Below, in pieces: positions 21,850 through 22,858 of a stretch of DNA of 31,580 nucleotides. The first letter of the stretch is position 1; each line of letters begins with the position of its first letter. Origin of the DNA: a virus (Duplodnaviria; Heunggongvirae; Uroviricota; Caudoviricetes); IMG/VR virus record IMGVR_UViG_2700989363_000008, positions 1 to 31,580 of that record. The stretch is one strand, 5' to 3'. The position numbers were made by a program, and so were the translations under genes. Below the pieces are notes generated by a model. That model was not told where the DNA came from. It made no database searches and worked only from the letters and a program-made list of their open reading frames with translations.

Positions 21850-22079
21850 ATCAGGTAAAAATGAACACTGTTGGCCTGCTGGAATCGTTGGATGAACGTC
21901 TGGCTCAGGTCTATGCGCTCGTATCATCAGCCCATCGGACAGTCTCCAGTTGTGAGGCGTCGATTTACCTCTCAGAGGCTGGAAAACTTCTGCAGATTGC
22001 GTGTGAGTTAACGCATGAAGCACAGGGATATTCTGCGTCTCTCTCGTCGCACTTGCTGCGCGATAAGGAGGCTGAATGA
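21846..22079 (+). CDS. Hypothetical protein (77 aa) upstream of the antirepressor
   Basis: ORF translationally coupled on both sides (ATGA overlaps). Confidence 0.45.
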   Translation: MNQVKMNTVGLLESLDERLAQVYALVSSAHRTVSSCEASIYLSEAGKLLQIACELTHEAQGYSASLSSHLLRDKEAE

Positions 22080-22858
22080 GCGCGTTAGCAGTCTTTTCCT
22101 TTCAGGAAGAGCATCAGGTTCGTGTAGTGATGATTAACGGTGAGCCGTGGTTTGTGGCTAAGGATGTATGTGATGCTTTAAGACTCGTTAATTCCCGGAA
22201 GGCGCTAATGTCTCTGGATGAGGATGAAAAGGGTGTAACTTAAAGTTACACCCCTGGCGGAGAGCAAAAGCTAAATATTATTTCAGAGTCAGGTCTATAC
22301 ACCCTGATCCTCCGCTGCCGTGACGCGGTGAAGCAAGGCACAACAGCTTGGCGGTTTCGCAAATGGGTAACGAACGAAGTCTTGCCCTCTATTCGCAAAA
22401 ATGGAGAGTACGTTTACATCGAGCCTGAGCCAATGCGAGCAGCGGAGCCGTTGAACGGGAGGCAGAAAGCGTATCTTCGAGGGCTGATTAACGATATAGC
22501 ACAAAGTTTTCGGTGCCGAAATGCCTGGATCAGTGGAATATGGTTGGCTTTGCGTCGGGCGTGTCGTAATCCATCCCCGAACCCCATAACGGTTGATGAT
22601 TTGCCAGCAATTGCGGCAGAACTGCGCAGGATTTTGACGGCTGCTGAGTCGGCATTGAGGAACATGCGCACGTATGAACGGGAGTTGTTGCGTGATGTTG
22701 TTCGTGGGGGTAGGCGGAGTATGTCGTGTGGTGATTTGCCCATCATCGATATCAACTCTGATCTGGAAAAGGCGTTACCCGCACATTTTGAACTGGCAGT
22801 TCAAAAACTTGAGCAGCTATCCGCGCAGTTAAAGCCAGCAGAAATCACTAATAAATAG
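22076..22858 (+). pseudogene. Bro-N/KilA-type antirepressor interrupted by an in-frame TAA (22241-22243)
   Basis: 22076-22240 encodes MSALAVFSFQEEHQVRVVMINGEPWFVAKDVCDALRL...DEDEKGVT, then TAA, then the same frame continues SYTPGGEQKLNIISESGLYTLIL...WVTNEVLPSIRKNGEY... to 22858 (Bro-N signature). Confidence 0.7.

Follow-up and report, generated by a model that had tools for sequence, protein, structure and literature searches.

What is to be made of a stop codon that interrupts an otherwise continuous reading frame, and does so at the exact centre of a perfect palindrome? The question is raised by a stretch of 31,580 nucleotides from a virus of the Caudoviricetes (IMG/VR record IMGVR_UViG_2700989363_000008; this whole stretch is called the window below), in which a gene of the Bro-N family is broken at codon 56 by a TAA lying in the middle of an inverted repeat of 23 base pairs (bp). 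The answer reached here has two parts. The palindrome is an ancestral, co-varying feature of the Bro-N coding sequence, and the protein sequence does not explain it; the stop is probably real, an ordinary, recent null mutation in an accessory gene. We infer that template switching during replication may be the cause of both the conservation of the repeat and the mutation within it.

The frame at 22076-22858 (plus strand) runs for 55 sense codons to a TAA at 22241-22243 and then for a further 204 sense codons to its natural stop. Translated across the TAA, the product matches the Pfam family Bro-N (PF02498) over residues 14-104, with 78.1 bits against a cut-off of 25.6 (E 8e-22), and the match spans the stop and takes in profile positions 1-96 of 96; the 55-residue fragment by itself corresponds to profile positions 1-41. 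An earlier reading of the locus, made from its sequence only, had described an in-frame TAA at the centre of the palindrome, and all its particulars, coordinates included, proved correct when the sequence was read again; its further statement that the frame is continuous for about 260 codons and Bro-N-like on either side of the stop is borne out by the translation and by the Pfam match. The repaired protein is 100% identical to a public protein (P0001), and intact orthologues of 783 nucleotides (nt) are annotated in plasmids. The gene, of antB type and orthologous to gene 30 of phage N15 (71-76% identity to N15 gp30), thus has 260 codons, broken at codon 56. What remains of it is a truncated open reading frame (ORF) of 55 amino acids at 22076-22243 (plus strand), identified from the ORF list and by exact look-up and annotated as CSS96681.1 in Shigella sonnei, together with a predicted residual ORF of 176 codons at 22328-22858 (plus strand), which would begin at a GTG 28 codons past the stop, the first canonical in-frame start beyond it. 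This residual ORF is without residues 1-84, that is, most of the Bro-N domain, and its PHROG matches are to the tail of Bro-N and the C-terminal part only.

The palindrome itself, GGGTGTAACTT-A-AAGTTACACCC, occupies 22231-22253 and lies at the conserved inverted-repeat site of the family, which takes in codons 52 to 60 (K G V T L S Y T P). Its arms (22231-22241 and 22243-22253) are 11 nt each and 100% complementary, with a single nucleotide between them. No comparable inverted repeat appeared in 100 dinucleotide-preserving shuffles. Perfect inverted repeats with an arm length of 9 nt or more and a spacer of 5 nt or less number 12 in the window as a whole, where shuffles lead one to expect 0.56. 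Folded as single-stranded DNA the site gives a 10-bp stem with a 3-nt loop that is exactly the TAA codon (-9.6 kcal/mol, z = -5.6), and the centroid structure predicted for RNA is the same hairpin. When the window was searched against Rfam at gathering thresholds, a C4 RNA, its targets, isrK and IS009 were found and there was no match at the palindrome, nor did a permissive scan (E <= 10) of 22000-22500 give any. A terminator scan called the palindrome on neither strand, the sense strand being without a T-run. Past the stem, the minus strand reads TTTTCATC, and the upstream Glu codon GAA is only mildly enriched; an antisense terminator was considered and seems improbable, given the absence of a call by the scan and the mildness of this enrichment. 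Rejected was a recombination breakpoint at the palindrome, as allele differences run on both sides of it.

Comparison with relatives establishes that the stop is a derived singleton. In eight of the nine contigs that encode P0001 the gene is identical to that of the window over all 783 nt except at base 22242, where they have T, giving TTA (Leu56), and the window has A; in an exact look-up the 55-residue product was found on just one contig in a collection of 15 billion proteins, that contig being the window itself. It is on these two observations that the suggestion of a recent inactivation, put forward in the sequence-only reading, can be upheld. The closest plasmids carry the same palindrome with a central T, hence TTA (Leu), and an intact 260-residue protein, and of 16 public sequences that share the 13-nt arms, 10 have T at the centre and 6 have C, while none has A or G. 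A stop at codon 56 occurs in none of about 165 Bro-N relatives. Exact look-ups in the protein collection found neither the truncated products to be expected from five other allele families nor the 176-residue residual ORF. Against its nearest relatives (L191 and L192) the window shows, over 11.8 kilobases (kb), four substitutions and one 18-bp in-frame repeat indel, with no homopolymer errors and no frameshifts. A separate observation at this site is a protein of 65 residues on one Logan contig (P0131), from a frameshifted copy of the gene (...TLSYTLAESKS) in which the CCCC run bordering the palindrome on its 3' side is one C short.

It was natural to ask whether the palindrome might be an insertion, but alignment of orthologues disposes of this, since the residues specified by its codons are conserved in Bro-N and the palindrome is met with throughout the family. 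N15 gene 30 itself has the palindrome CCTCGGTT-T-AACCGAGG at the same codons, and other relatives have there the compensated palindromes GGGTCTGCATT-T-AATGCAGACCC, GGGTGGGTATT-C-AATACCCACCC, AAGGGTACCCACA-T-TGTGGGTACCCTT and CGATCTAACTT-G-AAGTTAGATCG. A perfect or near-perfect repeat of 15-27 bp is found at the same Bro-N codons in Proteobacteria, Firmicutes, Bacteroidota, Actinomycetota and Spirochaetota; in 80 further loci drawn from many phyla (including Pasteurellaceae, Pseudomonas, Bacillus, Paenibacillus, Bacteroidales, Mycolicibacterium, Spirochaetes and Synergistetes), at least 9 of the 11 possible Watson-Crick pairs were present in 56.

The covariation was quantified with a set of 130 unique 39-mers. 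Paired cells make up 82.7% of the total, a figure that falls to 59.5% on shuffling the partners and to 31-43% on sliding the partner along the sequence; changes on both sides of a pair account for 384 cells as against 126 in shuffles; and the covariation score is 0.577 as against 0.184, a value of 0.577 being reached in none of 500 shuffles. That the protein sequence cannot be responsible is clear from resampling codons so as to preserve the amino acids, which yields 6.38 +/- 0.07 of 11 pairs where 9.11 are observed, the figure elsewhere in the same genes being 6.12. Codon usage at the site is correspondingly extreme: for Lys there are 72 AAG codons and no AAA (320:357 in the background of the same domain), for Thr 92 of 94 codons are ACC (background 33%) and none is ACT, and for Asp there are 40 GAC and four GAT (background 34% GAC), while in 82 of 113 sequences the base that ends codon -2 is the complement of the one that opens codon +2. 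Where genes have diverged, the palindrome stays identical at 26 of 27 nt between flanks that agree at 14-24 of 27. The central base varies freely in frames that tolerate it; in the frame in which A or G would create TAA or TGA, only T and C occur. In its own right it may be recorded that two of the loci (L168 and L172) have identical 27-nt palindromes in genes that are otherwise about 65% identical.

There remains the level at which such a constraint might act. Codons that would put G.U pairs into the mRNA, namely ACT and GAT, are avoided, and mismatches of G.U type form 16% of the non-Watson-Crick cells, which is the proportion expected by chance; this avoidance of G.U points to a constraint at the level of DNA that admits Watson-Crick pairs only, rather than to one on the sense RNA. 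A hairpin in the sense-strand mRNA kept by selection was accordingly set aside, no tolerance of G.U being seen. The idea that the palindrome encodes the turn of a beta-hairpin was also rejected: in an AlphaFold 2 model built from a 25-sequence alignment (predicted local distance difference test score, pLDDT, of 68-87 in Bro-N; a single-sequence model reached a pLDDT of 39) residues 52-59 form one continuous strand and the turn falls at P60-G61, away from the symmetry axis of the DNA. Among solved structures no homologue was found by sequence, and the best Foldseek hit, at E 0.23, was not a meaningful match. No description of the Bro-N palindrome was found in the literature searched or in Rfam.

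The explanation to which we incline, with a preponderance of probability that is real but modest, is that template switching keeps the arms complementary and that the change from TTA to TAA is the minimal inversion of the spacer of such a repeat. Switching during replication would copy one arm from the other, and so would preserve their complementarity over evolutionary time; synonymous third positions would be forced to complement those bases in the opposite arm that are constrained by the amino acid they help to encode, conversions altering constrained residues would be purged, and free third positions would be driven toward complementarity. The same process would at times invert the spacer, so that the loop TTA becomes its reverse complement TAA, which in this frame is a stop, the outcome being a 55-residue fragment and a dead antB. 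The window and its eight intact relatives do have identical 11-nt arms, and reverse-complementing the ancestral spacer yields the derived one, whether the spacer is counted as three bases (TTA to TAA) or as one (T to A). Processes of this kind are known: homogenisation of arms, together with recurrent and reversible inversion of 3-nt spacers, has been described for perfect repeats with arms of at least 10 bp in coding genes (PMC8604942), and template switching has been found to create and maintain hairpins and to invert their loops (PMC8794818). Perfect inverted repeats are conserved beyond expectation in Proteobacteria (PMC5941160), and in E. coli quasipalindromes are hotspots of mutation (PMC7202029). 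Within the same gene there is, moreover, a second perfect inverted repeat (22786-22806), a 10-1-10 arrangement TTTTGAACTG-G-CAGTTCAAAA encoding F-E-L-A-V-Q-K. It is confined to the lineage of the window; in N15, in relatives of Klebsiella and Enterobacter type and in others its place is taken by GAGCTGGCCATCGAGAAG (A-I-E-K), which is not palindromic. Judged from this comparison, it looks like a recent homogenisation of arms by template switching in which two residues were changed, A-I-E-K becoming A-V-Q-K.

It must be remembered, all this said, that a number of points tell against the proposal. A multi-nucleotide signature is missing, as one base differs, and for this spacer no such signature can exist: inversion of a one-base spacer is the same in sequence as a plain T-to-A transversion. 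The base call is that of one draft assembly, and a consensus error at the hairpin is possible. The fact that one of four substitutions fell at the symmetry centre is suggestive, but it is a post hoc observation, the site having been chosen as a stop in a palindrome. There is no other allele centred on A or G, either with the same arms or in the five other allele families, and hence no sign of an elevated rate. At synonymous sites G-C pairs are kept in 92-100% of cases and the A-T pair at position 8 (the third base of a Gly codon) in 65%, a pattern which fits selection for stem stability at least equally well. As to the covariation, the sequences are phylogenetically related and the centre of each alignment was picked for maximum pairing; the search for a centre was repeated in the resampling and elsewhere-in-gene controls, while the shuffle and slide controls used the fitted alignment.

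Of the alternatives, the one with most to commend it is that the conserved palindrome is a selected nucleic-acid element, the stop being an accident within it; this is quite possible, if not the account we would choose. It is compatible with a real mutation, and competes only with template switching as the account of why the repeat is conserved. The element might act as DNA, in the form of a hairpin or cruciform or by binding some dimeric protein, perhaps Bro-N itself; it might also be a hairpin in the mRNA, or an intrinsic terminator of antisense transcripts. Compensatory changes and conservation across many phyla are what selection would be expected to leave, as are the extreme synonymous bias, the island of 26 of 27 identical nucleotides amid flanks that differ, and the better retention of G-C pairs than of the A-T pair at position 8; in addition the upstream Glu codon is GAA in 83% of cases as against 61% in the background, which places TTTTC after the minus-strand stem. 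Yet each specific candidate meets some difficulty. No Rfam family matches even at E <= 10; the want of G.U tolerance counts against a stem in sense RNA, and the free variation of the inner 7 bp of the arms against any one conserved binding protein; the terminator scan made no call on either strand, and the sense strand lacks a T-run; the loci differ so widely in gene context that a shared, context-dependent role is hard to picture; and no such element is described in the literature searched. A bolder form of the idea, in which the element (most probably a DNA hairpin or a site of self-recognition by Bro-N) has an odd symmetry centre that makes these genes switchable, by inversion of the spacer, between TTA and TAA, or TCA and TGA, with the window as the first "off" state to be seen, we regard as distinctly doubtful. 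A reversible contingency switch worked by repeated inversion of the spacer, with TTA as on and TAA as off and with AntB phase-variable, is in itself very improbable. Spacer inversions in coding inverted repeats are reported to recur and revert (PMC8604942), and in sub-families whose frame tolerates it the same arms are found with both T and A centres (CTAAGTT with A, C or T; CTAACTT with A, G or T), but the window has the single stop allele among all the contigs with these arms, no off allele was met in the five other allele families, and the restriction to T or C wherever A or G would make a stop is the pattern left by purifying selection.

The remaining alternatives concern the stop alone. 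That it arose as an ordinary T-to-A point mutation, independent of any hairpin and on the central base by chance, is unlikely without being far-fetched: a one-base change requires no special mechanism, three other single substitutions are scattered over the comparison with the nearest relatives, and A- or G-centred alleles do not recur. Against it stand the probability that one of four substitutions in 11.8 kb should fall on a specified base (about 3e-4, though calculated post hoc), the fact that T to A is a transversion, and the occurrence of a second, independent repeat-creating change in the same gene. Rather less probable again is an artefact of sequencing or consensus, with T as the true base and a strand-specific miscall caused by the hairpin. 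Inverted repeats do trigger sequence-specific errors in short reads, and the allele is a singleton from one draft assembly; but the rest of the contig is clean over 11.8 kb, and it can be reasoned both that a de Bruijn graph cannot exchange the centre of a palindrome at the usual k, because the flanking (k-1)-mers differ, and that a consensus error would need most reads to be wrong on both strands. Programmed recoding (readthrough, bypassing or frameshifting) or a naturally split gene, which the sequence-only reading had also entertained, is scarcely credible. Such an arrangement is excluded as a feature of the family, because not one of the orthologues, among about 165 relatives, is stopped or split at codon 56. 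The stop does lie within a hairpin loop, and A-AAG-GGT just upstream fits the slippery pattern X-XXY-YYZ, but the hairpin overlaps this candidate slippery site and does not lie 5-9 nt beyond it, the -1 frame ends after about 30 codons and the +1 frame at once, both release factors recognise UAA, no tRNA gene is present in the window, and restarting at the first canonical start 28 codons downstream would give a product deprived of residues 1-84.

What the mutation means for the phage depends on the setting of the gene. The window belongs to a linear plasmid prophage of Shigella sonnei that is N15-like (Ravinvirus), and the region around the stop has the composition of the immA operon of N15. 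Between the gene for RepA (1327 residues; 16901-20884) and the convergent gene for the protelomerase, telN (23031-24944, minus strand, by orthologue annotation), there lie in order on the plus strand a C4 control module, an icd-like gene, a small ORF of antA type and the Bro-N gene. The module consists of a1/b1 targets for C4 RNA with an isrK-like element and, at 21496-21513, a terminator-like hairpin with a T-run (21431-21517; Rfam RF03163, 49 bits and above the gathering score, and RF01394, with a terminator scan for the hairpin), followed by a C4-type antisense RNA, the CA RNA of N15 immA (21544-21631; Rfam RF01695, 82 bits against a gathering score of 45), so that the antisense RNA has its target sites upstream; relatives have a 40-residue "ash family" ORF annotated over part of this module (21431-21631). 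The icd-like gene for a cell-division inhibitor is at 21676-21849 (NCBIfam phage_ICD_like, E 1e-18, and orthologue annotation). Next to it is an intact ORF of 77 residues at 21846-22079, a homologue of N15 gp31 and of AntA of phage PY54 (PHROG 10889, "anti-repressor", E 1e-18), whose stop overlaps the antB start as ATGA. Between antB and telN a 10-bp inverted repeat with a 5-nt spacer (22995-23019) is probably a terminator, to judge by its position only. The gene order of the region is the same in the relatives L184-L192. In telN itself the 18-bp indel mentioned above (23223-23240) consists of additional in-frame CTCTTC repeat units that L187, L188, L191 and L192 do not have, and it lengthens a poly-Glu tract near the C-terminus of the protelomerase.

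The naming of the interrupted gene calls for some care. In PY54 the gene annotated as antA encodes 87 residues, and pairwise BLASTP finds 35% identity between its product and the 77-residue ORF (E 5e-9) and 34% between it and N15 gp31 (E 1e-10), where a local tblastn search of PY54 with the 77-residue ORF had missed it; a Bro-N homologue was not found in a local search of PY54. As PY54 is said to be without antB and has no Bro-N homologue, gp30 can be taken as AntB; and as PY54 antA matches both the 77-residue ORF and gp31, the interrupted gene would be the orthologue of AntB, with an antirepressor of AntA type intact upstream of it. AntB has no assigned function, and the antirepressors of telomere phages that have been tested are the small AntA and AntC (PMC4488713). 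Induction of N15 depends on antC (PMC4488713), genes of AntA type prevent lysogenisation (PMC10612081), and a linear vector still propagates once N15 genes 30-32 have been removed from it (PMC2847241). The suggestion that the stop locks the prophage in an uninducible state therefore finds no support: the gene hit is of AntB type, the AntA-type ORF is intact, and N15 is induced by way of AntC. The antA-type gene, icd and the C4 RNA are untouched by the mutation, and since antB is the last gene of the operon before the convergent telN, there is no target for a polar effect of the stop. AntB function would be lost. For the prophage, then, the effect is small, an accessory gene having gone with polarity absent and the tested type of antirepressor kept, and there is a lesson for annotation, namely that "antirepressor" labels on Bro-N proteins in telomere phages should not be taken to denote the induction switch.

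Some further observations on repeats and alleles may be recorded here, each for its own sake. Over residues 21-67 of the Bro-N gene (22136-22276) the window has an allele sharply different from those of three relatives (L003, L004 and L005), the first 20 and last 190 residues being 97-100% identical to theirs, and this sequence pattern suggests either a cassette-like replacement or diversifying selection of the segment. Nearer the start of the domain, at about codons 12-18, five N15-like loci (L012, L013, L022, L025 and L042) have a perfect palindrome AACCACCCGG-T-CCGGGTGGTT (N-H-P-V-R-V-V), which is absent from the window, has degenerate versions elsewhere and is of one sequence type only. 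In the locus L065 (IMGVR_UViG_3300045988_081894) a CAA has become TAA four codons past the main palindrome, turning AGTT-caa-AACT into AGTTT-a-AAACT; chance is a plausible explanation for this nonsense codon at a short quasipalindrome. The in-frame stops that lie in small inverted repeats in L065 and L138 are weak cases, AT-rich or with 5 bp, and were given no weight. Elsewhere in the window a perfect 12+12 palindrome, CCCATTATACGCGCGTATAATGGG, lies at 25124-25147 upstream of telN, which is the position expected for the core of the telomere-resolution site (telRL/telO) of N15-type phages. Two copies of a palindrome GTGCGACC-NN-GGTCGCAC, at 5702-5721 and 9022-9045 and thus about 3.3 kb apart, may be dispersed partition (centromere) or operator sites. 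Just downstream of a sopB-like gene there is a match to Rfam IS009 (126 bits; 27790-27993, minus strand), and adjoining it is a perfect 11-1-11 palindrome, TATCCCCTGCA-T-TGCAGGGGATA, at 27728-27750.

It is the family-wide, co-varying palindrome in coding sequence, more than the stop, that deserves attention. It offers an unusually clean natural system in which to ask whether repeats within genes are kept by selection for a structure or by template switching that perpetuates itself. If the latter, a mutational process would be dictating codon usage and coupled pairs of amino acids (V/Y, T/S, L/Q, H/M and G/P) in a widespread phage domain, at the built-in cost that a sense codon is one inversion away from a stop; if the former, a cis element not previously described would lie inside a widespread phage regulatory domain with thousands of homologues.

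Set against systems already known, the gene belongs plainly to the Bro-N family PF02498, usually annotated "anti-repressor Ant", which it matches over the full length across the stop, and it has a C-terminal module in common with N15 gp30; the annotation of the family as antirepressors is by homology only. Its operon resembles N15 immA (CA RNA, icd, antA and antB), itself related to immI of P1 (c4, icd and ant), in gene order, in its position between repA and telN, in the C4-family RNA with its a1/b1 targets, and in the icd-like gene, the gp31-like ORF and the gp30-like Bro-N gene, and it differs in that the last gene is cut at codon 56, in the copy of the window only, and in that N15 has another allele of the central part of Bro-N (residues 21-67). 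In bypassing of the type of T4 gene 60, a case of programmed recoding at a stop codon in a hairpin, there is similarly a stop atop a stem-loop inside a continuous frame, but the present stop lacks conservation and has no matched pair of take-off and landing codons, and the relatives all have a sense codon. Phase-variable loci, whether based on simple-sequence repeats or on invertible segments, provide a parallel in so far as a feature of the sequence could in principle let a null mutation revert at an elevated rate, and they differ from the present locus in that it has no recombinase, no population evidence of switching and one off allele seen. The closest likeness is to repeats shaped by template switching as in the Ripley model (PMC8604942, PMC8794818, PMC5941160, PMC7202029): the arms are perfect over 10-11 bp in the parental and in the derived allele alike, the sole change is in the spacer and is its reverse complement, the arms co-vary as would be expected if one serves as template for the other, and a second repeat in antB looks newly homogenised. 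The inversion of a single base leaves no diagnostic multi-nucleotide footprint, in which respect the present case departs from those repeats, and its outcome is a nonsense codon in place of an amino-acid replacement; and this repeat is conserved across phyla within one protein domain, where it dictates the choice of synonymous codons, a depth of conservation far beyond that of the strain-level examples in yeast or the non-coding ones in Proteobacteria.

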